A DNA stretch of 64,000 bases. It comes from a virus. The notes under the pieces are model-generated. The model made no database searches, was not told the origin of the DNA, and saw only the letters and a program-made list of their open reading frames with translations. Position numbers and translations under genes: made by a program. The DNA lies in the IMG/VR virus record IMGVR_UViG_3300037585_001448, positions 1 to 64,000 of that record. One strand, written 5' to 3'. This document shows, in pieces, positions 2,978-64,000 of this stretch (positions are counted from its first letter, which is position 1; every line of letters begins with the position of its first letter).

Positions 2978-4668
2978 TAACGGATTCTCCTTGTCCTGTA
3001 CATAGCCACAGCGGAAGTTAGGCCCCATGTCCCTCGGTTGCCAATGGCAGGAGAAACACTGAACCTTAAACTAATAGCCTTGGCTGTCCCAGCCGTCGGC
3101 CAACGGAAGAACTTGTAAATGTTCGATGTGCCCCCCGCAGCCCACTCATCCACATCCCACTTGGCCGTATCCCACAGTGCCGTAGTCGTCACACCAACGA
3201 TAGATTGGCTCTGCGACACCGCCTCCGTACTCAAATCGTAATCCTTATAGATGCCCATACGGACAGTCAACGTGTTGTCCGCCAACATGACCGTGCGCGT
3301 CTTACCCCAACGCTTAGTAAACGTGGGTCGATTACCAATAAACCAGCCCGTCTGATAGAACGACTGGATCTCCGTACCTGTCGTCCCGTCATAATCGTCA
3401 ACGTCTTCGTCAACGTCCACTTTGGAAACACGGGTAAAAGCCGCCGTAGCATCCACCACCGAAGTCACAGCCAACCCCAAATGAGCGGCACCCGTCGGAC
3501 GGTACGCCAACAAAGAACGGGCATTAATGTCGTACCGTGCCCAAGCGCCCGACTGCCCCAACGACGGATCCCACATAAACGTATTGCGCCTGTTTGCCTG
3601 ATCCGACCCGGCCAGATTGTCACCCGACTGATAGTCCACAGACAGCCACAGTTTCTCATCAAACCACATCATAGACGGGGCTGTACCCAACGTCAGCGTC
3701 GACCCGTCATCCAACGCAGGCTTGAGGCGTTCAAACGCCCACGCCAAATCATCGTAAGACAACAAGTAGACGCCGTCTTCGGCATACCAGAAAAAGATTC
3801 CCACCGTTGAAGCGATAGGGCTGGTTCCGTTGCGGCATCCTGCCGCACGGGTAATGTTCCGAACCTCAAACGAGTCCCTGCTGAACCCGTAGATGGCGTA
3901 CACGCTGTTCTGCTTGAATACCAGTAGACGATCAGCGTCGGGGATAATGGCCGTTATGAAGTCGCCATCTTCGCCGATATCGATGTCGATGAAGTCGGTG
4001 GCTGTCCAGTTCTCCGCATCGTTCACCTCAGAAAACCTGACACGGTTTTTGTATGCCGTCCCCGACTCCGTTGTGTAGGCCACCCACACGAACTGTCCCC
4101 ATGTGGCAAGATAGCGTGCCGCTGGAAAGTGGCCGTCCGAAGCGTCAATGTCCGGCGTCAACGTGGTCGCATTGTTCGATCCAGACCATCTGACCGCCGA
4201 CTTGGTGCCTTCGCTACTCAGCAGGCTCCCGTTGGAAAGGTAAGTGTATTCGTTGAACGTGACACTGGCTGGAGGCTGAACCCCAGCGAATACGACCGTC
4301 CCAGCCGCCGAGGCGACCGCCGTGCCCCCAAAGTTCCCCGATGCCCCGTTGTTCCAGTACAACTTGGAGTTGCCGCTGTCTTTAACGGAAGCCAAAATCT
4401 GGTTAACGGAAGCGTCAGAATGCTGGTAGATGCCGTAAATCTGATCGGCTAAAGCAGTCCCGTTCAAAGCGTCAATGGCGTTGCGGCGCGACACGCCGCC
4501 ACGCGGATCAACGTCCACGTTCAGCAACGCCGGGGACTCGCTTGGGGCCAGATTGAACTGGTCTGCCCTGAGGTTCAAACCGCCCGTAAAATCGGCACGT
4601 TCGTCGTAACGGTACGGTTCAGCGTACCCCGTGTTTCTAAAACCAGCGGCGGGGAGGGTGAAAGCCAC
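2977..4668 (-). CDS. Tail tubular protein B / stabilisation (P22 gp10-like beta-propeller)
   Basis: DFTGGLN N-terminal motif, beta-propeller-like repeats, position after the adaptor gene. Confidence 0.7.
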   Translation of the reverse strand: MAFTLPAAGFRNTGYAEPYRYDERADFTGGLNLRADQFNLAPSESPALLNVDVDPRGGVSRRNAIDALNGTALADQIYGIYQHSDASVNQILASVKDSGNSKLYWNNGASGNFGGTAVASAAGTVVFAGVQPPASVTFNEYTYLSNGSLLSSEGTKSAVRWSGSNNATTLTPDIDASDGHFPAARYLATWGQFVWVAYTTESGTAYKNRVRFSEVNDAENWTATDFIDIDIGEDGDFITAIIPDADRLLVFKQNSVYAIYGFSRDSFEVRNITRAAGCRNGTSPIASTVGIFFWYAEDGVYLLSYDDLAWAFERLKPALDDGSTLTLGTAPSMMWFDEKLWLSVDYQSGDNLAGSDQANRRNTFMWDPSLGQSGAWARYDINARSLLAYRPTGAAHLGLAVTSVVDATAAFTRVSKVDVDEDVDDYDGTTGTEIQSFYQTGWFIGNRPTFTKRWGKTRTVMLADNTLTVRMGIYKDYDLSTEAVSQSQSIVGVTTTALWDTAKWDVDEWAAGGTSNIYKFFRWPTAGTAKAISLRFSVSPAIGNRGTWGLTSAVAMYRTRRIR

Positions 4669-7527: not shown

Positions 7528-9393
7528 CTATAGACTTCCCAAGTCCACGCCCATCTGATTCTGCAACTGCGTTACCAACTCGGGCGGAACACCGCTAGTC
7601 TCTGCAAAGGCATCTTCAGGGGGCATCATCGGCAGGCCCGCTGCGCCGGGTGGACCCGGCGGCGGACCACCGCCGCCTTCCGGCATCATCGGGGCCTGCT
7701 GCATCAGGAACTTGTCGGGGTCCTTGATGTCGAAACCGCGTTGGAGTACATGCCTCGCAAGCGCTGTCGGATCAATCACGGTCCCCACCAGCGGGGCCAT
7801 GGCGTTCAACAACGAAACGGCCTGCTGTTTACGGATGGTGTCATTGGTGGGCTGCGTAGAACCGCCCTCCACGGAATAATCGTACTCCCCGATGATATCG
7901 TCCCGGGTGTACGTCACAAAAAGGTTCTCGCCGCCACGACCCACCACACGGGCGACCTGCTCACCAGTCATGAACTGTTGCATCAACTGGATGATGCGAC
8001 GGGCGACATGTCCAATCCCCAATTCGACAATCGCCAACTTGTCCGCAGCACGGGCATTGCCAGCATCAGCGATGATACTCGCCTCAGTTGCGGTACGCCG
8101 AATCTCAGGGAACTGCCCCCGTGCATACTCCGACACACCCGAAACAGTGTAAATGTCCTCTTGAATAATTGAAGACATATTGTACACTTCGGGCGAAAGA
8201 GGGGTTTGCGGCATCGGAACCACAACCTCCGACAAAGGCTTGTTCTCGTCCACCACAGGGACCAGCCGACCATCCTGATCCGATTCCAAAGCCTCGCGGC
8301 CCTCTGGGCCGAACGAACGCTCATGATACAGGTACTTTCGTGCATACCGTTTCCGGGCATTCATCATCTGGGAACGAGTCTTGTTCAACTCCGTCTGCAA
8401 AGACTCAAGTGCTTCCAGATCACCTATCGGGTAGAAATAGTCCGGAACGTCATAGTTCCGCAACATCACAAACGGCTGCCCGTACGCATACGGCATGGGG
8501 ATCGGATCCACCAAGAACTCGTCGCCAGTCATGGACGATACCGACATCGTATTATTAGTGATGTCGTAGTATTCGTATATCGCCACCCGCTCCTCTTCCA
8601 ACAGGAACTGCTCTTGTTCCTGACGGTTACCAGATTCATACATCGGGTACAGCATGGCGTCTGCGGTTAGTGACTTGCGAACCGACGGCTTATAGTTCTT
8701 ATCCGTCTTGGCATCCTCTAGGCGTCGGATAACCCGCTGAGCGATCCACTTCGCATCAGCCATGCAGGTCGCTTCCGGATCGACAAACATGTCGAACGGA
8801 GAAATCCTCTCCAGAAACGGCTGATCCTCCACAACCATCATGCTGGTCTGGGGAATCATAGCCAGCAACTCTTCATCGCTAGGTAAACCGCCAGCCAACT
8901 CCGGGTTTTCCATCCCGTACAAGTCCGCCTCAAACAAGGCGTCCTCCCCCATTTCCTGACGTTCCACATCCCCCAAAGACCGCTCCTGCTCCACAAAGTT
9001 CCAACCAACCTTCAGCCACCCGTGGCCGAAAATCAGAAAGTCCTTCACGGTGCGGCGAAACGGATTGCGAAAATCGTGATGCCGCCACATGTAATTGATG
9101 ACAGCCTCAACAAACGTGGCCCTGTCACCATCCCCCGGCAACGTCGGAGATACCACAATCTTCGGATGATTCACCGACACCGACGGCGCAATAACATTTA
9201 CCGTACTAAACGCCAGATTGACAGCAATCAAATCTTCCGTACTGGCGGTTGTACGCGGCCAATGCTTGCCACGGTACAAATCGTTCATGCGACGCCACAG
9301 ACTGTCATAGCCCATATCGTCACGCCAACGCCCAGACGACCTCAGACGGCGCTGGACAATCTCATGCTGCTCAGCCCGCGTCTTACGCGCCAT
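7528..9393 (-). CDS. Portal protein (P22-like)
   Basis: 621 aa between terminase and scaffold; GxGWLKVGW, ISPFDMFVDP and RTATEA motifs. Confidence 0.85.
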   Translation of the reverse strand: MARKTRAEQHEIVQRRLRSSGRWRDDMGYDSLWRRMNDLYRGKHWPRTTASTEDLIAVNLAFSTVNVIAPSVSVNHPKIVVSPTLPGDGDRATFVEAVINYMWRHHDFRNPFRRTVKDFLIFGHGWLKVGWNFVEQERSLGDVERQEMGEDALFEADLYGMENPELAGGLPSDEELLAMIPQTSMMVVEDQPFLERISPFDMFVDPEATCMADAKWIAQRVIRRLEDAKTDKNYKPSVRKSLTADAMLYPMYESGNRQEQEQFLLEEERVAIYEYYDITNNTMSVSSMTGDEFLVDPIPMPYAYGQPFVMLRNYDVPDYFYPIGDLEALESLQTELNKTRSQMMNARKRYARKYLYHERSFGPEGREALESDQDGRLVPVVDENKPLSEVVVPMPQTPLSPEVYNMSSIIQEDIYTVSGVSEYARGQFPEIRRTATEASIIADAGNARAADKLAIVELGIGHVARRIIQLMQQFMTGEQVARVVGRGGENLFVTYTRDDIIGEYDYSVEGGSTQPTNDTIRKQQAVSLLNAMAPLVGTVIDPTALARHVLQRGFDIKDPDKFLMQQAPMMPEGGGGPPPGPPGAAGLPMMPPEDAFAETSGVPPELVTQLQNQMGVDLGSL

Positions 9394-9665
9394 TAGAAGT
9401 ACGCCTTATCCGGCAGGCGTTCGATGTTTCGACCCGCCGCCTTCGCTTCCATCGCCGCCTTCTGGCCGCGTTCTTCCCTGCTTAGATGCTGCTCTTCGGG
9501 AGGCAACTGGGATCGGAAACCCCGCCCAGTTGCGAACTTGACGCCAAGTAGTTTCTGACGACGTTCCCATAACTCATCCAACTCGGCGCAGGCCAACGGC
9601 CCACGCAGGCCCACGGTATAATCGCAGAACTCCGCGTAGGACGCCTCCCGGGGGAGGATCGCCAC
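9393..9665 (-). CDS. Hypothetical protein
   Basis: Co-oriented and coupled to the portal gene. Confidence 0.55.
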   Translation of the reverse strand: MAILPREASYAEFCDYTVGLRGPLACAELDELWERRQKLLGVKFATGRGFRSQLPPEEQHLSREERGQKAAMEAKAAGRNIERLPDKAYF

Positions 9666-9667
9666 AG

Positions 9668-9973
9668 TTACGGGCGCTTAGTGTGCGGCGCAGCGTTATG
9701 GCCCTTCAGGTCCGGCTGAGGCTTCGACGGCTCAACCTTGCCCGTCGGCCCATGCTGATTGAACGGTGTCTCACGGACACTGACTTCCCCGTAGCCGCCA
9801 GTCTGACTGGCGTACTTCGGAGCATCAAACCGCTGCTCCGGAGAGTTCGGCGCGGCAGGCTCCCAAATCGGGTTAGCCACCACGGAACCACCACGTTCCA
9901 TCTTGTTGTTCTGACCGTTCGGTCCATCAATTGTCACAGTGCCGTTCGTGTGCGACACAAAATTCTTAGCCAC
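9668..9973 (-). CDS. Hypothetical protein
   Basis: GGAGG RBS; in the late operon. Confidence 0.55.
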   Translation of the reverse strand: MAKNFVSHTNGTVTIDGPNGQNNKMERGGSVVANPIWEPAAPNSPEQRFDAPKYASQTGGYGEVSVRETPFNQHGPTGKVEPSKPQPDLKGHNAAPHTKRP

Positions 9974-10013
9974 AAAGACCTCCAAGTCTTAATAAAGCCT
10001 CTACAGGAACTGG

Positions 10014-10679
10014 TCAGACTGTCCCACGCATCGTATGGGAACCAATCTTCAAATCCGGATTCGGATCATCCTTCACCATCCGGGCAAACCAATCAACAGT
10101 CCAATAATCGTCCGCCTTCGGTGCAAACTCGGGCATAAACGCGTACTGGCGCATCTCATTCGCCAACGCCAACGCCATCACACGGTCATCATGCGGTGAA
10201 CCCGACATCGAACCCCGCTCATTACGCACATACGTCCGCAACTCCCCCAACGTGTACCGATCATGAATCGTCAACTCGCTTGACCGCAACGCCATCCCCA
10301 GATCATCAATCAACAAAGGCTTCGATGTGCGAGTCGTCTTCCACCCAAACTCCAAAGACACCTTGGTAGTCGCCCGATTCAACGTTCGTTTACGAAACAT
10401 GTTCGGATGACCCAAATGACGCAACTGAACAATCGTAGTCAACCCGTGATTGTTCGACTCCACACAAGTCAACGCACTATTATACCACAACGACAGATTG
10501 TACACCTCCTCAGCCAACGCATCCGGAGGAATATGCCCATGCCAAATAGCGACCTGTTCGCCAGAGCGAACATCCAAGACCTGAATACACGAATAATCCC
10601 CATGCGCCAACCCCTCCGCCGTATCAACCCCCATACAATACGGGCGCCCACCAACAGGCTCACGCCAAACTGTGAGCAT
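10014..10679 (-). CDS. terL: Terminase large subunit, RNase H-like nuclease domain (separate ORF)
   Basis: GVDTAEG, VESNNHG and HDDRVMALALA acidic triad. Confidence 0.85.
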   Translation of the reverse strand: MLTVWREPVGGRPYCMGVDTAEGLAHGDYSCIQVLDVRSGEQVAIWHGHIPPDALAEEVYNLSLWYNSALTCVESNNHGLTTIVQLRHLGHPNMFRKRTLNRATTKVSLEFGWKTTRTSKPLLIDDLGMALRSSELTIHDRYTLGELRTYVRNERGSMSGSPHDDRVMALALANEMRQYAFMPEFAPKADDYWTVDWFARMVKDDPNPDLKIGSHTMRGTV

Positions 10680-11565
10680 CTTTACGGAACTCCACAAAAC
10701 GAGCCGACGGGCGCCACAAATAACCGCCCTGACCCTCCTCAACAAAAACGTTCATCCGCTCCAACACATCCAAATCAAACACAGGGTTACCAGACTTTAT
10801 GAACGCTTCCTCAGGCGTCGTCGGATACTCCTGAGCCAACTGCCACGGCAACATCGACTCTTTCTTCGACAAATACCACGACTCGTCCCGATCACCCGCC
10901 GCCGACCAAGGAAAAAACATCGGAGAGAACCTGTTCGTCCCCGTGGACGACCCCACCCATAGTTCGTGGAAAAAGTTTCCGCTTCCATTCGCCGTACTAA
11001 GACCAATGATTCGGCCTCCGACATCGGCCACTGGTTCAATAGATGCCCACGCTTCCTCAGGATTAGGCAAAAACGCCCACTCATCAACAACAACCAGCGA
11101 CGCAGACTCGCCACGGGCAGGATCCGATGCCGAAGGCATCGAAGTAATCTGGCTCCCATTCCCAAACGCCATCTTCTGCTGATGCTCCACCAGCGACTCC
11201 GGGCCACGCTCCACCATCCACTCCGGCAAATGCTGAAAACCATACTTCGACTTGCGAAGCAACAACACCGACTCGCGCTCCGTACGCGACAAATCAATAA
11301 TGTTCTGATCCGGCCTAAAAAACGCCAACCAAAACTGGTGAGCCGCCACCAACGTCGTCCACCCAATCTGACGGGCCTTAAGAGTCAACGAATAACGGTT
11401 CTCATCCCAATGATCTAAAGCGAAAGACTGGGCGTCCCGAAGATCAAACAATATTCGACCATGAGCAGGATGGGCAATATGCCAATACATGCGTAAGAAG
11501 TACGACTCATCCTCAACGCAACGCCGCCACTCCGCCTCCCTCTGAAGTTCACTCAGACGGCTCAT
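10660..11565 (-). CDS. terL: Terminase large subunit, ATPase domain
   Basis: LKARQIGWTT (Walker A), VVVDEWAF (Walker B), LSTANG (motif III). Confidence 0.9.
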   Translation of the reverse strand: MSRLSELQREAEWRRCVEDESYFLRMYWHIAHPAHGRILFDLRDAQSFALDHWDENRYSLTLKARQIGWTTLVAAHQFWLAFFRPDQNIIDLSRTERESVLLLRKSKYGFQHLPEWMVERGPESLVEHQQKMAFGNGSQITSMPSASDPARGESASLVVVDEWAFLPNPEEAWASIEPVADVGGRIIGLSTANGSGNFFHELWVGSSTGTNRFSPMFFPWSAAGDRDESWYLSKKESMLPWQLAQEYPTTPEEAFIKSGNPVFDLDVLERMNVFVEEGQGGYLWRPSARFVEFRKDAHSLA

Positions 11566-11663
11566 CTACTCGAACAACGACTGTAACGTCCGACCCAAAC
11601 CCCAAACCGTAAAAGCAACACACCCGAACAGAACAAACACCGTCCCGCACAACACCCACTCCC

Positions 11664-11861
11664 TCACTGACACGACTCGCACACCTCAGGGTTCTCCAAC
11701 CCGCACACCAACGGCTCATCAGATTGCGGCCCATGAAACGGATCCCCCCACGGCCCCAACACAGGACGCTCACCAAACGCCTCCTCACGCCACACCTGCT
11801 CATCATCACCATCAAACGCTGGACCCAACACCACACGCTCCGTAACCTTCGGCCAAGCCAC
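11664..11861 (-). CDS. Small acidic protein ending CGLENPEVCESCQ
   Basis: ORF between terS and terL. Confidence 0.6.
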   Translation of the reverse strand: MAWPKVTERVVLGPAFDGDDEQVWREEAFGERPVLGPWGDPFHGPQSDEPLVCGLENPEVCESCQ

Positions 11862-11862
11862 C

Positions 11863-12318
11863 CTAATCCCCCACAACCCTCAAATGGTGGACCTGAGCCA
11901 ACAACTCATCAGCCAACTCCCCATCCGACAAACCAGAAGCCTCACGATCATCATCAACCAACACACGACGCTTCGGAGTAAACTTCTCAATATACTGCAA
12001 ATACAACGACGCAGCCTGTACACTCCCACCCACAGCCTGCTGATGCAACGCATCAATCACAGACTGAGTCCGCTCAGGATGAATATTCAACTCCGCAGCA
12101 CGACGATCCCACTCCTTCGCAAAACGAGGATCACGCTTAATACGCCGCACCGAATCCTCATGCACCCCATTCTCAGCAGCCCACTCATACTGATGTTTAG
12201 GATCCCTATCGGGACCCTGCAACAACCAATCCAACAACTGCGCCCACTTCTTCGGCATCGTCTTCTGACCCGAAGACTCATCCCATTTCCAACCCCGGCC
12301 ACCACCATTCTGCGGCAT
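11863..12318 (-). CDS. Probable terminase small subunit (HTH)
   Basis: HTH-like EWAAENGVHEDSVRRIK and GSVQAASLYL; AGGAGG RBS; upstream of terL. Confidence 0.7.
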   Translation of the reverse strand: MPQNGGGRGWKWDESSGQKTMPKKWAQLLDWLLQGPDRDPKHQYEWAAENGVHEDSVRRIKRDPRFAKEWDRRAAELNIHPERTQSVIDALHQQAVGGSVQAASLYLQYIEKFTPKRRVLVDDDREASGLSDGELADELLAQVHHLRVVGD

Positions 12319-52935: not shown

Positions 52936-53215
52936 AATGCAGAAAGGCCACACCCTTTTCAGATGTGGCCCGTGGGCTTGCCTCTATTTTCCAGACCGTG
53001 GGTTCACGGCCTAGTCGGAACCATAGCACTTCCCTCTGGTGTAACAACGGTTACGACTTCTACCGGTTGAGGGCCACCGTTGAGCACGATGGTCGGGCGT
53101 TTGCGTACCGCACCCCGGTTGGCATACAACCGGACCTCAACCTGACCATCGAACGATGCGACAAGAGCCGCTATGCGAGCGAGTTGCTGCTCCCACGAGT
53201 CAATGACTGGATGGC

Positions 53216-54526
53216 TCACACCAAAGCCGGTTCGCCCAAGGCGGCTTCCATGCGTCGGGCGCTGCCACCGATCGAATACCCGCGGAGGTCGCCGTTCTGG
53301 ACTAGATCCCACGCCCACGGTTCCCAGATGACACCCATGAACGGGGTGTTGGCAGGGAAGTCGAACGCTCTGTCGTCTTCGCCGGGGAGGCTCATCGCTG
53401 CGGTGATCGGGAACGGCCAAGTCAGGAGTTCAACGAACTCTCCGGCTTTCGTATCGGAGTGCTGGAGGTAGATGGACCGGTCGTCCTTCTTCATCCACCC
53501 CCACAACGCTTGCTGCAATGTGTCGTCGTCAGTGAACTCACCGTGGGCGTCCAACACACCGGGGACGTAAACCGGGCCGAGGGTGTACCGCTTCGCGTCG
53601 GCCTTCTCCACAACCATTGTCCCCGACTTGGAAATGCGGGTTTGGATCTCGGCACGAACGAACTGGCGCATCGCTTCGACGTTCGGCGTGTTGCCCATCA
53701 TGTCAAAGCCGTTCATCCACTGGGTCAACTGGCTCAACGACGCACGGCTCACGCGCTGCAACGAGATTTCGGCGTCTCGGCGGTACTCGCGACGACGCTT
53801 GCCCTTGCCCTGCTCCACGTTGGCGTAGGTGCCGCCCGGCGTGAAGTTCAGTTCGTCGTCCACGACCTCCATGCCGAGCATGTCAAGCATGATCTCCTGC
53901 TTGGCGTGGATGAGTTCCATCAACGGGCCAAGCAACGGTTCGCACTCTGGGCTGTCCAGCATCGTGCGGTACGCCATCAACAGGAGAGTCATGGCGTCCT
54001 GCTCGTAGCCGCCACCGCCGTGGTCCTTGTCCATGATGCGCTTCCCTACCTCGTCGGCTGGAGTGTGAGTCGTTGTGCGGCTGGCGAGCAAAACCCGCGG
54101 GGCATCGGAGCGTTCCATCTCTGGGTGCATGTCCAGCCACGCTCGGAGCACCTTCGCTTTCACCGCGGGAAGGTCCGCTGCCGGGATGCGGACACGCTGC
54201 CCCCGGTAGCCCTTCCCTAGAGCAGCGACAGCCAAACCGACTTGCCGTCGGGTGACCTTCATCTCTGGTGTCTGCCAGAGCCGCAACTTCCACGTTGACG
54301 GCTTCTCAGGATCAGGGACGTAGGCGTAAGCCACGGCGGGGTATTCCTCACCGCTGTCCGTCTTGGTTGCCTTCTGCATGTCGGCCCCCTCTGATGCGTA
54401 CAGCGCAGCGATCTGACGGCGGGCCGCAGCGCGGGTCTTGTGGCAGCCCATCAACTGGTCGGTGCCGTCCTTGACGACGCCGAAGCCGGAACAATCGCTT
54501 CGGTTGGCAGCGACCGAGTAGGGCAT
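53216..54526 (-). CDS. XkdF-like prohead serine protease with N-terminal accessory domains
   Basis: GPVYVP..DAHGE, H, and GYSIGG catalytic-Ser motif. Confidence 0.75.
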   Translation of the reverse strand: MPYSVAANRSDCSGFGVVKDGTDQLMGCHKTRAAARRQIAALYASEGADMQKATKTDSGEEYPAVAYAYVPDPEKPSTWKLRLWQTPEMKVTRRQVGLAVAALGKGYRGQRVRIPAADLPAVKAKVLRAWLDMHPEMERSDAPRVLLASRTTTHTPADEVGKRIMDKDHGGGGYEQDAMTLLLMAYRTMLDSPECEPLLGPLMELIHAKQEIMLDMLGMEVVDDELNFTPGGTYANVEQGKGKRRREYRRDAEISLQRVSRASLSQLTQWMNGFDMMGNTPNVEAMRQFVRAEIQTRISKSGTMVVEKADAKRYTLGPVYVPGVLDAHGEFTDDDTLQQALWGWMKKDDRSIYLQHSDTKAGEFVELLTWPFPITAAMSLPGEDDRAFDFPANTPFMGVIWEPWAWDLVQNGDLRGYSIGGSARRMEAALGEPALV

Positions 54527-54553: not shown

Positions 54554-54805
54554 TTACTTGATGAACCGCCTGACACCCCACTCGGTAGCAAGCCTCTTCG
54601 CTTCCTTTCGGGTGATGATGTCAACACTGTTGGCTTCGCCGAACCGCCAGTCGTTCAACGTCAGGGTCGGCACCCAACCATCTGGGTGAAGCACCATGTC
54701 TTGCAGATACGACGGCCCTTCTTCACTCATGTAAAGAACAGTGTGCGTCCCATCAGGTGCCGTCCTCGCGTAGTAGGTGCGGGTGACGGTGGACCGTCGG
54801 GCCAT
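54554..54805 (-). CDS. Candidate immunity protein for the alarmone-synthetase domain
   Basis: 83 aa, YY..GW..DIITRKEAKRLA. Recalled resemblance to Tis1/IapK-type proteins, unverified. Confidence 0.45.
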   Translation of the reverse strand: MARRSTVTRTYYARTAPDGTHTVLYMSEEGPSYLQDMVLHPDGWVPTLTLNDWRFGEANSVDIITRKEAKRLATEWGVRRFIK

Positions 54806-55056
54806 CAGGCAGCGCCTACGTCGCGTGGCCCTACGTCTGGTGAGCCGACGAACCCGGTGAGGTCGGGCCACTCGCCGGGGATCTCCACGATGCCGCCCTC
54901 GTCGGCGATCTCCTTCATCTGCCGGGAGATGATCTTCCAACGACCTTCCATCATCGGCGACTTCGGCAACTCAGACCGAGGGTCGCCGTACTTCCACCCG
55001 GCTGAGATTTCCACCATCATCCGGTTGAGTTCTTCGCTGGTTGGTACTGCCATCAT
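54805..55056 (-). CDS. Small protein, candidate immunity/antitoxin
   Basis: Own TACACT -10 (55077-55082) and AAGGAG RBS; coupled to 54554-54805. Confidence 0.4.
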   Translation of the reverse strand: MMAVPTSEELNRMMVEISAGWKYGDPRSELPKSPMMEGRWKIISRQMKEIADEGGIVEIPGEWPDLTGFVGSPDVGPRDVGAA

Positions 55057-55095
55057 CGTCTCCTTCGTTGCTTCGTAGTGTAGCCGGTTCTAGCG

Positions 55096-58188: not shown

Positions 58189-58446
58189 ATGGCAACTCTG
58201 CTGAGGCCAGACCTCCCCACACCACAACTCTCCCGCGTGTTCGGGCATCTCAAAGACGACGCCCCATACGCCGACCTTGACGACGCCACCCGGACTGCGC
58301 TGGTCGATCGCGCCATGTCCCAAGGGGTTGCCTCGTTGACACCCTCAGAGCGTCAGATGATCGAAGACACCAACACCAACAGGCTCAAGAGGCTTCGACG
58401 CGGTGGGGTCAACTACGACATGCTCACCCAGCAACGAATCGACTAG
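58189..58446 (+). CDS. Small protein, candidate immunity protein (ART-like domain)
   Basis: Leaderless after TAGACT (58176-58181); weak paralogue of the next gene. Confidence 0.45.
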   Translation: MATLLRPDLPTPQLSRVFGHLKDDAPYADLDDATRTALVDRAMSQGVASLTPSERQMIEDTNTNRLKRLRRGGVNYDMLTQQRID

Positions 58447-58449
58447 CAG

Positions 58450-58689
58450 ATGGCTACCGACCCGATCACGCTGGACCGGCAAGCAGGACGCCTCGCAGCG
58501 TTTCTTCAACCCCAGCATCGCGGTGCGCTCGCCAAGACGGTTCTCGCCACCCCACCCGGCGACGACATCGCCGAGCCGTACCGGGGATGGTTGGAAGACC
58601 CCACGACCGTTCCTGTGATCGACCTTCTCAAGCCCTCAGAGTTGACGGCAGCCGACGCCGAGTGGATTCACGACGGAACCCGCGACTAG
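58450..58689 (+). CDS. Small protein, candidate immunity protein (ART-like domain)
   Basis: Convergent with the MuF gene; stop codons overlap at CTAG 58686-58689. Confidence 0.45.
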   Translation: MATDPITLDRQAGRLAAFLQPQHRGALAKTVLATPPGDDIAEPYRGWLEDPTTVPVIDLLKPSELTAADAEWIHDGTRD

Positions 58690-61600
58690 CCGACACTGAC
58701 CCCGACGGCGCTGCGATTGAGAATGACGTAGTAGTTGCCGGGGACTTCGGTGGTCGTCACCCCGGTACTAAAGTTGTACCCCGTCAACGTGGGCTTCACT
58801 ACTTCGATGATGTCCACCCCCTGCGACGCCGCATACCTGCCGACATCCGTGTAGAGCAGTTCAACAGTCTCTCCTAGACGCTTGAGTTCGGCCATTGCCT
58901 CCTTCACCGCTGGTTCGCTGAACCACGGATGGTCTGCCCCCGCTATGTCCTTCATACTTTCAACGGGCCAGTTCCTCATGTAGTCAGGGCCGAGGATCGT
59001 GTTGCCACGCTGGATGTCGATGTCGTCATACCTTTGCATCGCTTCCGTGACGCTCAGTGTCGTCTTCTTGATTTCTTCGATCTGGCTGTTGAGCGGTTGG
59101 GCTGCTTGAAGCATTTCTTGTTCTAACGGTTCGTACAGGGCGATCTTGGCGTCAGCCTCAACAACCATTTCAACAACGGTCCCGTGTTCCCAGTCTCCGC
59201 TACCGGTACCGATCCCGAACTTTTTTGTTGCGAAGTCATCAGCGATGTCCTCAACGTCGCTGGCGTAAGTACCGTTGCCGAACAGCCCTTGTCCCACATA
59301 GGTGGTGTCGCCGGGGTCGATGAACTCTTGGACGAACTGATCGACCTCCGCTCGCTCATTGGCACCGAAGCCGCGGTACAGAACTGTGCGCCCCTCTGCT
59401 ATGGCGTCTTCCATTTCCCCAACTGTCAACTGTTGGACGCCCGCGTCAGGCCACTGGGTTTTGATGATCTCCCGCAACGCCGGGTCGTTCGATACCTTTG
59501 GGTCGTTCCAACTGAGCCGGTTGTCGCCCGTCTTCGGCATGGACTCTATGACTTCTTCTACGTTGGCTACTTCGTCAAACCACTTCTCGGGCTTCGTCGC
59601 TTCGACCACACGCCCAACCGGCTGCTGTCCTTCGTTGATGAGCCGAGCGAACTCCTCAAGATCGTCAATCGTTTCCGATAAAGCCGAGGGATCGACAACC
59701 GGTGGTCTACCCGCTGCCCGCTGCCTGATCTCGGTGAGTGTGAAGTCCAACACCTCCGGCGATTCGGCTTGGGTGACGCGAGCCGCACGGATCATGTCGT
59801 TGACTCTCCCAACCTCAGGAAAGTCTAAGAGTTCGTCGGCCATGACAACAGCGTTCCGGTTCAAGAGAAGAACCTGACTGCTGTACGCTTCATCACCAGA
59901 CGAAATAAGCGTGTCAACAACAGCGTCGTAGCCGAGCAACGTCGCGATCGCCCCATCGTCGGCACGCGAAACCTTGACACCCTTGAAGCGGCCTTGCGCC
60001 CCCTGCATTTTGTCATTGACGACCAGCCGGTAGATCGACTGGAACGCCGGGTCGTCTATCGGGTCGCCGGTTTGTTTCGCTAAAGCAACCAGACCGAACG
60101 GGTCGTCACCCGTGTACCCCAACCGGTCCAGCGATGTGCCAACAGTTTCAATACTTGCCGAAGACGGCAGCCTGCCCGAGATATGTCCCGGTAGCACATC
60201 GTCAATCGTCCGGCCCCGGATGTCTCGTAGCGCCGACACCGCAGCGGTGGACGCATCATCTATCGCAAGGTCAGCGGCAACCTCAACGATCTCTTTCGCT
60301 TGGGCACCCATCGCCTGTTCGATAAGAGCAAGGTCGCTGCCCGTGACGGTCTTTGCGTCTGGTTGGAGCGCCGCACGAAGCACACCACCCGCCTCGTCCC
60401 CGCTCCAACCCTTTGAGTACGCCGCCGCCATGTCCATCGCGGTGTCCAACCCATCGCCATCGCCAAGGGTTCGCAAACCAGCCTCCGCGGAGGTCTCGCC
60501 AGCGTTGGAGAAGAAATAGGTACCGTCGCCGTAGTGGCCGGTCCCGGTGTGGAAGTCCCCGGATTGGAGTTCTTCAAGGAACTGGATGTTCTCGTCGCCG
60601 CGCAGCAACTCCAAGCCGCCTGATTCCAACACCTCGTCCAGTTCAGCGTCGGTTACCAGTTCAGGGAGGTCGTCAAACCCTCTGGCCCTGCGAAGATCCT
60701 CCAGTTGCGCCTTGACAGCGATCGTGTTGTCAGGGTCGGTGGGGTCAACTTTGACGCGGTATCTGACCCTTGTCGGGTCAGCGCGCGCATCGTCCAGCGT
60801 CGCCAAACCGCTATCAGTGACCATCCGTTTCGCCTTGTAATAGTCACGGTCGATCATCTCTTCTAACGCTTCGCGGGCTTGGGCCTCCCACGCAACCGCT
60901 ACCTGATCCAAGTTCGCACTCGTACCGAACGGGTCCACGAGATCAACGATGTCTTCAACATCCACGACCGGGCGCACAAAGTCCGGGTTCTTAGCAAGGA
61001 AGTCGTCGTACAGGTCCGGTCGAACAATGCGTTCCGATTCCCCGGCGATCTTCTCGTACACAAGGATCGGCTTTTCGCCCTGCGCGACGTTGTTGTCCCA
61101 CAACCTGATCTCATCGAACAGGTCGTCGGCTGCCGCTTGGGGGAACACTTCCGACACGCCAGCATGGGTGTCGCGTATCACCTGCTCTGGGACACGACGA
61201 CCGCTTCGCGCCCCTCGGGCTGCTGAACGGGCCACCGCTTCTTCGGTTTCGATCGTGACGTACTCGGCTGTCACTCGGGTGGAACTGGCACGGGCCTCAG
61301 CGACCTTCTTCTGCAACTTGGCGTAAGACGAATCGCCGGTACCGTCCAAGACAATGTTGTTGCTGCCGTCCAACGCTTCGCTCATCAACTGCTTGCCCAT
61401 GTACGACGACTCTTCATGCACATACGCCGCAGCGTTCACAGACCAGTCGCCGCGCTGGTCGATGATCTGGACGTATTCGGGAATCATGTCTTTGGCTTCG
61501 TCGGCGTTGACGAGCACATGACGATCAGGTAACACAATCGTGTCGGTGTTTGTGAGGCTGGACTTACCGGACGCCGGGCCACCCCCCATGAACACAACCT

Positions 61601-64000
61601 CGTTGGATTCGGTGTAGCCGCCCTTCGCTAACTCTGCTTCGATATATGGACGGTGAACGCCCTCAACACGCGACTCAATCCACTTGCCGTCCACGGTGTT
61701 GCGGGCCATTGTGTCGATCTCTGGCACAACGTCGTAGTCGGCTTTGCGAAGAAACTTGGCGTAAGCGTCCTCGTCGTAGATTTCCAGCAAGCCATCCTTC
61801 TTGCGGAGGATCAACTGGGGTGGATCAAAGTTCGTGTCCCACAGTTTGATGTCGTCAAAGATGTTCTCGTCCAGAATGTCGGGAAAGATCCGGCTGATAC
61901 TGGAATGGGTGTCTCGCACCACCTGTTCAGGGACGTACCGGCCTGTCCTGCGGCCACGGGCTGCCGCCCGGCGTACCGCCTCTTCGGTATCGACAGTCAC
62001 ATAGTCGGCGATGACGCGCTCACCGCTGCTGTTTGCCCGCGCTGACGACACCTTGCCCCGAAGTTTCTCAATGGACGAATCCCCGGTGCCGTCAAGCATC
62101 GTGTCGCGACCCGACTGAACCGACTCGGCCATGATCTCCTTGGAAAGCATGGATGACTCTTCGTGAACGTAGGCGGCAGCCTTCGTGTTGCTTTCCTTGG
62201 AAAGCACCTTGTATTCGGGAAGGTGTCCCTTGATTTCGTCGGCGTCAACGACGACCATCGTGTCCGGGTCGAAGTCGATCAACTTTTGCCTGATCGCTGT
62301 TCCCTTCCCTGACGCTGGACCGCCACCCATGAAGTGAACGACCTGTTCGCCCGGCTCGGCAACAGGAACGTCGCCGATGATGTCGGCTGCGATGTCCCGG
62401 TGAAGTTGCCTTCGGAGTTCCCAGTATTCGCCGTCGATCTGCGTGTACGCGTCTTCGGTGCCTCCCGGTAAGCGACCCCCGAACCGGTTGTAGAGGTCGT
62501 CGTCTGTTGCCAGCCGGTACGGGTTGGGTTCTTCGGGGAACCACTCAAGGTCCGTGACACGTTTCGGATGAGGGAGGTCGTCGGCGATGTCGGCAGCGGC
62601 CCGAACCAGACGCTTCTTCTCAATGTCGTCGATGCCTATTTGCCGGGACTTCTCGTAGTAGCCCCAAATCTTGTCTTTGACATCAAGGCTGTCTGGGGTG
62701 TGGAACTGGATTTCGATGATTACGCCGTCTGGGCCTCGGAAGTTTGCGTTGATGCCGTTGTACGGGTTCTTGGCGTTGGGTTGACGCCAGTAGTTCTTCG
62801 GTCCCTTGGTGAGTTCGTAGCCTCGGTCACGCAGGTCACGCATCGCTGCGGCGACATCATCGTTGTACCGGGCTTCGTCTATGACCATCGTGTACCGAAC
62901 AGAGTCGCTTACCTCGTCGGCGACCTCGGTTACCGTTCGTAGCCGCTGCGGGAACGCTGCCGTTTCGTCTACGAAGTCGGTGGCGATCTTGCGGGCCAGC
63001 GACGCTTCTTCCTTGACGTTGAACTGGAGGCCGTACAGGTCCGCTCCGATGTCGGACGCGGTGCCCTGCACCTGAGCGGTGATGTTGCCCTGCGCCGCGA
63101 ACGCCTTCTTGTGGATTCGGGTTGCTTCCCGCCACGCCTGCTCGCGTACCGCAGCAGGGATGTCCGGTGGTGCCATGACCTGACCGGGTAGCCCCGTGGA
63201 CGGTGGAACGATCGTGTCGTACACCACGGTCCAAGTGCAACGGCAGTTCGGGTGCGCTGGGGGCAGGTCTCGGGGTTCGACCACCCAGTTGCCGCCCCTT
63301 GGGTACGCAGCGTTGAACGATCCCCCCTCAAAGGCGACGACCTTGCCGTGAAGCGGTTCACAAATCTGGCACACCTCAAACGATGAGGTGATCCACTGAC
63401 GGCCAGCACGCTGCGGGTTGAACATTCCTGCTTCGGCTGCCTGCCGGGCTGCGACCATCTTGCCTTGGTTGGAGGCTTCCATCATCTCGGTGCGGGAGAT
63501 GACACGGGTTCGATGCTCGCGGAGTTTCTTGCCGTACTTGGATGCCTCACGTTCAACGGCTTCCAACGCCTGCTCGGTGGTCTTGCCTGCTGCGACCGCT
63601 TCCGCGAACACGGTGCGGCCCCGGTTCAAGACGGCGTTGTGTTGCGGCAGCGTCAACCCGGCTACCGAAGGAGCGAGTCGTTCACCGAACTCTGCTAGGT
63701 CACCCAGCGACGGTGCCGTCTCCAACACCTCGCCGAGCATGTTCATCATGGCTTGCCTGCCGCCCTTGCCGGTTGTGCCACCGATGATGTCTTGCAGGTT
63801 CGCTCGGGTGTCCTCAGCGATGTTGGTAATCAGCCGGGCTGATTTGTTTTCGGCCCACTGTTTCCCCGCCGGGGTTTTGGTGGAGAACCCGACAGAGAAC
63901 GACGACCCCACAGGTGGCATCAACGTCACCGTCTTCGGGGTTGCTGCCTTCTGGATCTGGTTGATGGCTGTCGGGTCTGGTTTGCGTTCCAGTTGCCCTA
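58686..64000 (-). CDS. MuF minor head protein fused to RelA/SpoT-like, two zeta-like kinase and two ADP-ribosyltransferase-like domains (5' truncated)
   Basis: RTE..CQIC..PPAHPNCRC (MuF); KEEASLARK, DSVRYT, YNGIN, EIQFHT (synthetase); GGGPASGK x2 with HEESS and LDGT (zeta-like); RG..GxGxY/FGxGTY..LNR x2 (ART-like). Frame is open to base 64000. Confidence 0.85.
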   Translation of the reverse strand, partial: GQLERKPDPTAINQIQKAATPKTVTLMPPVGSSFSVGFSTKTPAGKQWAENKSARLITNIAEDTRANLQDIIGGTTGKGGRQAMMNMLGEVLETAPSLGDLAEFGERLAPSVAGLTLPQHNAVLNRGRTVFAEAVAAGKTTEQALEAVEREASKYGKKLREHRTRVISRTEMMEASNQGKMVAARQAAEAGMFNPQRAGRQWITSSFEVCQICEPLHGKVVAFEGGSFNAAYPRGGNWVVEPRDLPPAHPNCRCTWTVVYDTIVPPSTGLPGQVMAPPDIPAAVREQAWREATRIHKKAFAAQGNITAQVQGTASDIGADLYGLQFNVKEEASLARKIATDFVDETAAFPQRLRTVTEVADEVSDSVRYTMVIDEARYNDDVAAAMRDLRDRGYELTKGPKNYWRQPNAKNPYNGINANFRGPDGVIIEIQFHTPDSLDVKDKIWGYYEKSRQIGIDDIEKKRLVRAAADIADDLPHPKRVTDLEWFPEEPNPYRLATDDDLYNRFGGRLPGGTEDAYTQIDGEYWELRRQLHRDIAADIIGDVPVAEPGEQVVHFMGGGPASGKGTAIRQKLIDFDPDTMVVVDADEIKGHLPEYKVLSKESNTKAAAYVHEESSMLSKEIMAESVQSGRDTMLDGTGDSSIEKLRGKVSSARANSSGERVIADYVTVDTEEAVRRAAARGRRTGRYVPEQVVRDTHSSISRIFPDILDENIFDDIKLWDTNFDPPQLILRKKDGLLEIYDEDAYAKFLRKADYDVVPEIDTMARNTVDGKWIESRVEGVHRPYIEAELAKGGYTESNEVVFMGGGPASGKSSLTNTDTIVLPDRHVLVNADEAKDMIPEYVQIIDQRGDWSVNAAAYVHEESSYMGKQLMSEALDGSNNIVLDGTGDSSYAKLQKKVAEARASSTRVTAEYVTIETEEAVARSAARGARSGRRVPEQVIRDTHAGVSEVFPQAAADDLFDEIRLWDNNVAQGEKPILVYEKIAGESERIVRPDLYDDFLAKNPDFVRPVVDVEDIVDLVDPFGTSANLDQVAVAWEAQAREALEEMIDRDYYKAKRMVTDSGLATLDDARADPTRVRYRVKVDPTDPDNTIAVKAQLEDLRRARGFDDLPELVTDAELDEVLESGGLELLRGDENIQFLEELQSGDFHTGTGHYGDGTYFFSNAGETSAEAGLRTLGDGDGLDTAMDMAAAYSKGWSGDEAGGVLRAALQPDAKTVTGSDLALIEQAMGAQAKEIVEVAADLAIDDASTAAVSALRDIRGRTIDDVLPGHISGRLPSSASIETVGTSLDRLGYTGDDPFGLVALAKQTGDPIDDPAFQSIYRLVVNDKMQGAQGRFKGVKVSRADDGAIATLLGYDAVVDTLISSGDEAYSSQVLLLNRNAVVMADELLDFPEVGRVNDMIRAARVTQAESPEVLDFTLTEIRQRAAGRPPVVDPSALSETIDDLEEFARLINEGQQPVGRVVEATKPEKWFDEVANVEEVIESMPKTGDNRLSWNDPKVSNDPALREIIKTQWPDAGVQQLTVGEMEDAIAEGRTVLYRGFGANERAEVDQFVQEFIDPGDTTYVGQGLFGNGTYASDVEDIADDFATKKFGIGTGSGDWEHGTVVEMVVEADAKIALYEPLEQEMLQAAQPLNSQIEEIKKTTLSVTEAMQRYDDIDIQRGNTILGPDYMRNWPVESMKDIAGADHPWFSEPAVKEAMAELKRLGETVELLYTDVGRYAASQGVDIIEVVKPTLTGYNFSTGVTTTEVPGNYYVILNRSAVGVSVG

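Follow-up and report, generated by a model that had tools for sequence, protein, structure and literature searches.

Two coupled genes upstream of a phage prohead protease: a split two-domain protein with a putative, very divergent IapK/Tis1-type blocker of the MuF alarmone synthetase

Toxin-domain MuF proteins are widespread, and what they contribute to phage biology is unsettled (PMC10083569, PMC5576092). One such protein is encoded in the 64,000-nucleotide stretch of viral DNA analyzed here (the window), which is part of a 93,140-bp IMG/VR virus record, and the question raised by this locus is whether two small genes situated far from the toxin gene encode its immunity proteins. An initial annotation had described them as a translationally coupled pair of 83-aa genes, located just before the protease gene, preceded by GGC-TACACT and displaced by 3.6 kb from the toxin, and all of this could be read directly in the window. 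The features needed for the argument are as follows (coordinates are those of the window unless stated otherwise).

53216-54526, minus strand: prohead protease gene (S78/XkdF-type), 436 residues; Pfam PF14550 (Peptidase_S78_2), E 4.5e-10
54554-54805, minus strand: gene B, an 83-aa open reading frame; candidate IapK/Tis1-like immunity domain
54805-55056, minus strand: gene A, an 83-aa open reading frame; equivalent to the N-terminal domain of a fused family
55059-55066, minus strand: ribosome-binding site GAAGGAGA of gene A, read directly
55077-55082, minus strand: -10-like hexamer TACACT with GGC just 5' of it, read directly; 20 nt before the ATG of gene A
58686-63929, minus strand: gene of the MuF polymorphic/polyvalent head protein; Pfam Phage_Mu_F and two Zeta_toxin stretches
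62300-63200, minus strand: alarmone-synthetase (RSH/Apk2-like) domain within the MuF gene; PDB 8vx3 and tblastn
69122-69613 of the record (L094:1282-1773), minus strand: gene of an Aph1-like HD protein, 163 aa; best solved relative 7smg

Genes A and B are coupled through TGATG, in which the stop codon of A and the start codon of B have one base in common, and 27 nt separate the end of B from the start of the protease gene, 3' of which follow scaffold-like, decoration-like and major-capsid-like genes. Between the stop of the MuF gene (58686) and the start of A lie 3,630 nt with about six genes, those on the same strand 5' of A encoding a 224-residue HExxH protein, a DUF2786 protein and the products of three to four small genes. 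Two small genes on the plus strand (58189-58446 and 58450-58689) converge on the MuF stop, neither with a family match, and the former is real, as it shares 56% identity with a gene at the same place in a related contig (L009). At the other end of the region, a conserved gene of 63 to 71 codons (~53004-53220, minus strand) overlaps the end of the protease gene; its counterparts were found in L009 (6453-6668), L010 (9400-9591) and L011 (9711-9902), with the shared motif FDGQVE[VI]RLY[AS]N[RK]G[AS]VRKRP.IVLNGG.QP.

The toxin to be neutralized consists of a MuF module, a synthetase domain, two zeta domains and C-terminal modules, and since its frame is open to the end of the window, the true start may lie beyond it. 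The presence of a synthetase in this protein, as proposed in the initial annotation, was borne out by two kinds of matches, which identify an Apk2-like domain. MuF residues ~244 to 543 match the solved alarmone synthetase 8vx3 (E 7.6e-12), which has the entry name SaSAS and is taken here to be the Streptomyces albidoflavus SaEAS of PMC12691689. Moreover, tblastn returned Apk2-type MuF head proteins of Streptococcus pneumoniae, Mannheimia haemolytica, Pasteurella multocida and Aaphi23 phages at 26 to 30% identity (best E 4e-16). For the Apk2 class, both (p)ppApp synthetase activity and toxicity have been shown experimentally, and in Apk2 phages the toxin gene is followed by iapK, encoding a Tis1-like blocker, and by aph1, encoding a (p)ppApp hydrolase (PMC10083569, PMC12226406). 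Synthetase matches in Ralstonia "phage" records were set aside as large effector-like proteins at record ends. The HD protein encoded beyond the window matches 7smg, annotated as a "(p)ppApp hydrolase," with an E value of 9e-16, while it falls below the Pfam HD_4 cut-off (19.6 bits); its gene is separated from the 5' side of MuF by ~5 kb, on the opposite side from B.

Products of A and B are conserved at 42 to 98% identity in several phage contigs, one bacterial metagenome-assembled genome (MAG) and >100 metagenome contigs, and both genes are therefore real. A is directly followed by B in four close and three more distant viral contigs, always with an overlap or a direct abutment at the junction, and the order A-B-protease-scaffold-decoration-capsid is retained in the phage contigs that span the region (L001/L002, L003, L004, L009, L010 and L011). 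Every phage relative found has both the synthetase and A-B. The gene content between MuF and A differs among these phages: a WhiB-like gene is found along with other small genes in this interval of L010 and L011, while L009 is devoid of the DUF2786, HExxH and 138-residue genes, and the distance between MuF and A-B is 2 to 4 kb. Direct adjacency of MuF and the pair, which had been suggested as a feature to look for in related phages, was not found in any relative of this clade. Pasteurella phage Pmp2 has the order head protein (Apk2), IapK, Aph1 hydrolase and head maturation protease, which means that A-B occupies the same MuF-to-protease interval as IapK and lies on the same strand as the toxin. 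The Pmp2 order and the variable gene set make it plausible that MuF and A-B were separated by a later insertion, as first proposed. The WhiB-like gene (L010:6039-6404 and L011:6544-6909; Cys-rich, ...GIWGG...) belongs to lower-GC relatives and, together with the match to an Acidimicrobiales MAG (see below), points to actinobacterial hosts. In L010, the MuF gene is broken between the first zeta P-loop region and the rest (3224-3255) by a stop, a frameshift or an assembly error, and it is intact in L011.

The annotation had further assigned the pair its own promoter, and this claim gained support from the comparison of related loci. A TANNNT hexamer was observed at the same distance before the start of A in seven related loci (L003, L001, L004, L009, L010, L011 and the MAG locus L012), that is, in eight sequences including the window. 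Hexamers at the A start across loci read TACACT, TAGACT, TACAAT, TATAAT and CATAAT, and the TANNNT hexamer persists even where the gene and the sequence 5' of A are unrelated; the AGGAG of the ribosome-binding site of A is also kept in the alignment. No promoter was called near A by a simple sigma-70 scan requiring a -35 hexamer. The conserved hexamer is compatible with an actinobacterial -10 element and fits an expression of A-B independent of the head operon; as a conserved element of the pair itself, it may release the two genes from the late head operon.

Are A and B two genes for two tasks? Single proteins containing both parts were first recognized in four sequences (P0013, P0026, P0027 and P0031), and a profile search then returned 274 clusters at 90% identity, most of 143 to 204 residues and mostly fused A-B proteins. 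Of 12 clusters inspected, 10 had an N-terminal domain of the A type joined to a C-terminal one of the B type by a linker rich in Gly or in Pro/Lys, whereas P0060 had a different N-terminal domain and P0056 was a stand-alone B domain. The A and B of the window are a split form of this common two-domain protein. Because they are fused in most relatives, they are not two independent immunity genes, and the earlier count of four immunity genes for three toxin chemistries is undercut, as A and B are halves of one usually fused protein. Long multistretch matches (P0034 to P0050) were dropped as repeat or low-complexity artifacts, one of them resembling a translated repeat array. Neither A nor B had a match in Pfam, PHROGs or PADLOC scans, a credible match in 50,697 phage records (megablast and tblastn), or a credible match among PDB sequences (phmmer with single sequences and with the profile). 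Designed leucine-rich-repeat proteins and tryptophan hydroxylase were rejected among the PDB-sequence matches as spurious repeats, and a match of GWxYG to the ryanodine receptor was gone once the profile was used. A-B thus constitutes a sizeable unannotated protein family of ~270 clusters at 90% identity.

To identify what B might be, its family was compared with the known blockers of (p)ppApp synthetases. In temperate phages, the (p)ppApp synthetase toxins of the Apk2 MuF type have a binding-type immunity protein, IapK (= BcTis1) (PMC10083569, PMC12226406). B has 83 aa with a conserved core of ~75 aa, compared with 68 to 72 aa for IapK proteins, and its motif YY..GW..DIITRKEAKRLA is present, with the motif positions conserved in the family. 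For the IapK side, the products of five small genes 3' of Apk2 in phages (68 to 72 residues, two of them from species tested in PMC12226406) were aligned, and a B-only alignment was built from 20 diverse members. hhalign matched the two alignments end to end over 63 columns (B residues 8 to 74 and IapK columns 4 to 72; P 5e-4, probability 31%). None of 600 column shuffles of either alignment reached the real score of 23.7; the shuffled scores had means of 10.2 to 10.4 and standard deviations of 2.1 to 2.5 and peaked at 21.4. At its core, the match pairs SDIDEITRKEAKRFA with SDFEEISEKEAIRFI, corresponding to the last strand and helix, and upon realignment, the N-terminal YY/YL strand and the central tryptophans were paired as well. 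As a single preplanned comparison, this match appears to be a real signal at the level of sequence profiles, lying below the usual homology threshold. The resemblance to Tis1/IapK, which had been put forward in the initial annotation, has thereby acquired a measurable basis.

The profile search against IapK/Tis1 proposed in the initial annotation was productive for IapK and silent for the Pfam model. PF24154 (Tis1_ImmP) matched neither the whole phage record translated in six frames (E ≤ 10) nor 18 members of the A-B family (E ≤ 5), and it did not match the five IapK proteins from Apk2 phages either. A model that misses IapK too covers the class incompletely, and the missing match to B is therefore weak counterevidence. 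An IapK profile used with HMMER did not find Tis1 in the PDB. Moreover, no Tis1-family sequences were obtained via PF24154 from 401 Actinomycetota genomes, which is why the profile comparison was made with IapK from Apk2 phages. In a protein-language-model look-up (Atlas), Tis1_ImmP (PF24154) was the sole named family in the top 30 matches, and it is taken as a lead only, given a score of 0.83 and the presence of this family on just 11% of the cluster members.

A further small gene with a weak likeness to B was found in a distant phage (L107) whose synthetase domain, the most remote relative recovered, is 39% identical to that of the window. There, the synthetase domain forms the end of its gene, to which a 65-aa gene lying directly 3' is coupled through ATGA; the product of this small gene is weakly B-like from end to end (hhalign P 0.0023) and does not align with IapK. 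On this 109-kb viral contig, the motif [HY][FY]YGAW.GG...GGHP recurs between the modules of two consecutive large proteins (8612-12188) and may represent a linker or a processing site of polyvalent proteins.

Structure prediction provided a third line of comparison. B of the window alone, modeled by AlphaFold with an 18-sequence alignment (pLDDT 90.4, pTM 0.78), is predicted to fold into a four-stranded beta meander followed by a short helix, a strand and a C-terminal helix, and the fused relative P0013 was also modeled. When the models were aligned with 48,161 solved chains by VIA-align, Tis1, which is chain B of the Tas1-Tis1 toxin-immunity complex (6OX6), ranked third with the P0013 model (Z 4.3) and fourth with B alone (Z 3.7, rmsd 5.1 Å, 63 of 76 residues, 19% identity). 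Over both models, the alignments cover the whole domain at 18 to 19% identity and rmsd values of 4.8 to 5.1 Å. Z scores below 5 are too low to prove a shared Tis1 fold, and the unrelated chain 2ra8_A scores slightly above 6ox6_B; nevertheless, such a rank with end-to-end coverage is unlikely to arise by chance for these predicted models. Foldseek returned no PDB match at E ≤ 0.001 for either model, and 6ox6 was absent from the top rows. In BFVD, the B model matched actinophage proteins (TM 0.68 to 0.72, rmsd ~2 Å), which indicates that the predicted fold recurs in phages of actinobacteria.

Taken with the gene context, these comparisons show how far B resembles the known systems. Like IapK (~70 aa), B consists of one small domain and is encoded within the head module of a phage that has an Apk2-like MuF synthetase and an accompanying Aph1-type hydrolase, and both share a layout of an N-terminal YY/YL strand, a central W and a C-terminal D-[FI]-[ED]-E-I-[ST]-x-[KE]-E-A-x-x-F helix. 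Unlike IapK, B lies 3.6 kb from its presumed toxin and has a separate -10-like element; the helical domain A precedes it and forms a single protein with it in most relatives, and its resemblance to IapK is detectable only from profile to profile (P 5e-4). In addition, the hydrolase gene is ~5 kb off on the other side of MuF, and the toxin has five modules rather than the MuF plus one domain of IapK systems. Adjacency to the toxin, which B does not have, is a usual but not a mechanistic feature of the IapK/Tis1 class. Tis1 itself, the Pseudomonas aeruginosa immunity protein to the type VI effector Tas1/Apk1 (PDB 6OX6; PF24154), is similar to B in size, and its fold aligns with the predicted B fold over the whole length (rank 3 to 4 of 48,161 chains), yet with Z scores of only 3.7 to 4.3 and an rmsd of ~5 Å; its setting is type VI secretion, whereas that of B is a phage, and B has no PF24154 match. 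Each line of evidence for B as an IapK/Tis1-type protein is weak to moderate, but the lines agree, and with moderate confidence we regard B as a very divergent, putative blocker of this type acting on the MuF synthetase domain. With the synthetase, the Tis1-like B and the Aph1-like hydrolase, the known trio would be complete in a scattered form.

If B is such a blocker, it would bind the Apk2-like (p)ppApp synthetase domain in the MuF protein of the same phage and block the acceptor-nucleotide site, thereby keeping the toxin silent in the cell, whether producing or lysogenic, up to its packaging into the capsid. As in known Apk2 phages, the Aph1-like (p)ppApp hydrolase would add a second safeguard, an enzymatic one. 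Domain A may offer a second contact surface or serve as an adaptor, and A-B may be made at a time set apart from that of the late head operon.

What, then, is the contribution of A? In the AlphaFold model of the fused relative P0013, A consists of two predicted helices and a low-confidence tail, and its sequence carries an invariant EISAGWxYGDPRS motif and a conserved GGIVEIPGExPD tail. Epsilon antitoxins are helical. This likeness, together with the two zeta domains of the MuF protein, favors a division of labor in which B neutralizes the synthetase and A neutralizes one or both zeta-kinase domains in the manner of epsilon/PezA, and polymorphic toxin systems commonly have their immunity domains in tandem or in fusion (PMC3482391). 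However, outside its own family, A had no relative in Pfam (E ≤ 0.1; epsilon/PezA included), PHROGs, PDB sequences, PADLOC or Atlas, its helical part matched only generic helical hairpins (Z at most 4.4), and short fused forms of ~145 aa dispense with the conserved tail (IVEIPGExPD). We consider such a division of labor quite improbable. The initial claim that the pair neutralizes the zeta domains is likewise unsupported, as nothing links A or the pair to them.

A precedent for a blocker with a nonneutralizing partner is AT2faRel of the actinobacterium Cellulomonas marina, a two-domain antitoxin composed of a Tis1-like N-terminal domain and a pseudo-zinc-finger domain, in which only the Tis1-like domain neutralizes (PMC11782079); there, too, a hydrolase antitoxin is present. 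Compared by description, the domain order is reversed in A-B, where the Tis1-like part is C-terminal, and the partner is helical instead of a zinc-finger fold. By likeness to AT2faRel, and as a matter of speculation, A may be an accessory domain. Beside fused A-B genes, extra A-only copies were observed in some cellular contigs (L049:1528-1704, L051:9764-9940 and L037:1913-2119).

The distribution of the family in cellular genomes bears on two further explanations. A pattern scan over one genome per prokaryote species recovered the split pair once, in an Acidimicrobiales MAG (L012), where it lies between glyoxalase and short-chain dehydrogenase genes on one side and tRNA-Ala/leuS on the other. 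Base composition is uniform across this site, and the MAG has no homologue of the synthetase or the capsid; B was present in 1 of 201 genomes sampled from the same order. After B in this MAG, a Cys-rich 105-aa gene (10466-10783) lies on the opposite strand. The metagenome scan returned 110 contigs, 80 of which were kept, and on none of them did the head genes of the window or its MuF, synthetase or zeta domains have a homologue. Some of these copies adjoin defense-related genes, with AIPR, Z1 and GHKL ATPase genes in L014, an Eco57I-like enzyme, an SNF2/PLD helicase and GmrSD in L045, Mrr-ResIII in L046 and Vsr in L074. This association concerns a handful of loci whose neighbors could be named and carries no statistic, and the other named neighbors are ordinary (Der GTPase, amidohydrolase, alkyl sulfatase and DUF2071).

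The invariant place of the pair directly upstream of the protease in every phage relative could suggest head-assembly or virion proteins acting with the protease and the scaffold. Nevertheless, copies of the pair, split or fused, are found in cellular contexts devoid of head genes, namely, in the Acidimicrobiales MAG and near Der GTPase, amidohydrolase and restriction genes, and A-B has its own conserved -10-like element. Since A-B is found in cellular contigs without phage genes, a purely structural head role is excluded, and the head-assembly explanation as a whole is highly improbable.

The same distribution could also mean that A-B serves mobile and defense islands as a small protein with a general accessory or regulatory role (for example, in anti-restriction, as the antitoxin of some other system or as a small regulator) and that phages borrowed it, in which case the likeness to Tis1/IapK would reflect chance or the convergence of a common small beta/alpha fold. 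Most family members are indeed fused cellular proteins with no synthetase nearby, and several adjoin AIPR/Z1, Eco57I-like/SNF2/GmrSD, Mrr or Vsr genes. The low structural Z scores, the slightly higher score of the unrelated 2ra8_A and the missing PF24154 match also agree with such a protein. By contrast, three independent methods reached the same rare family, no shuffle equaled the real profile score (0 of 600), the phage has both a matching toxin and a matching hydrolase, and PADLOC holds no model for A-B. We therefore judge a general accessory protein to be rather unlikely and retain B as a putative IapK/Tis1-type blocker.

Under the blocker assignment, the cellular A-B copies fit sporadic, horizontally moving orphan immunity genes. 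They resemble the orphan immunity genes of polymorphic toxin systems (PMC3482391, PMC12483513) in being toxin-less and sporadic in cellular genomes, and differ from them in that the presumed toxin is delivered by a capsid and that several orphans reside inside restriction/abortive-infection islands. An unlikely, though testable, extension is that the cellular fused A-B is an antidote kept by the host to disarm alarmone synthetases injected by MuF phages; PADLOC has no model for A-B, and defense of this antidote type is absent from current defense catalogues. If B is assigned correctly, the diversity of Tis1-like immunity proteins goes far beyond what the Pfam model recognizes, and bacteria may keep orphan copies among their defense genes, which would give a testable idea of the purpose of phage-injected alarmone synthetases. 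The trio of toxin, Tis1-like blocker and hydrolase would then extend from gut and respiratory prophages to marine phages, probably with actinobacterial hosts, here with a scattered layout and a five-module toxin. New in this locus are the sequence family, the split or fused two-domain architecture, the scattered gene layout and the orphan cellular copies.

Two kinds of genes recur directly after fused A-B in metagenome contigs. One encodes a 72-aa zinc-ribbon protein (CxxC...CxxC) and was found in nine loci, including L033 to L036, L042 and L049 (e.g., L034:7498-7716). The other, also present in nine loci (e.g., L017:954-1688), encodes a 244-aa protein with an FtsH-like HEAGH metalloprotease motif, to which the 224-aa HExxH protein encoded directly before A in the window is unrelated.
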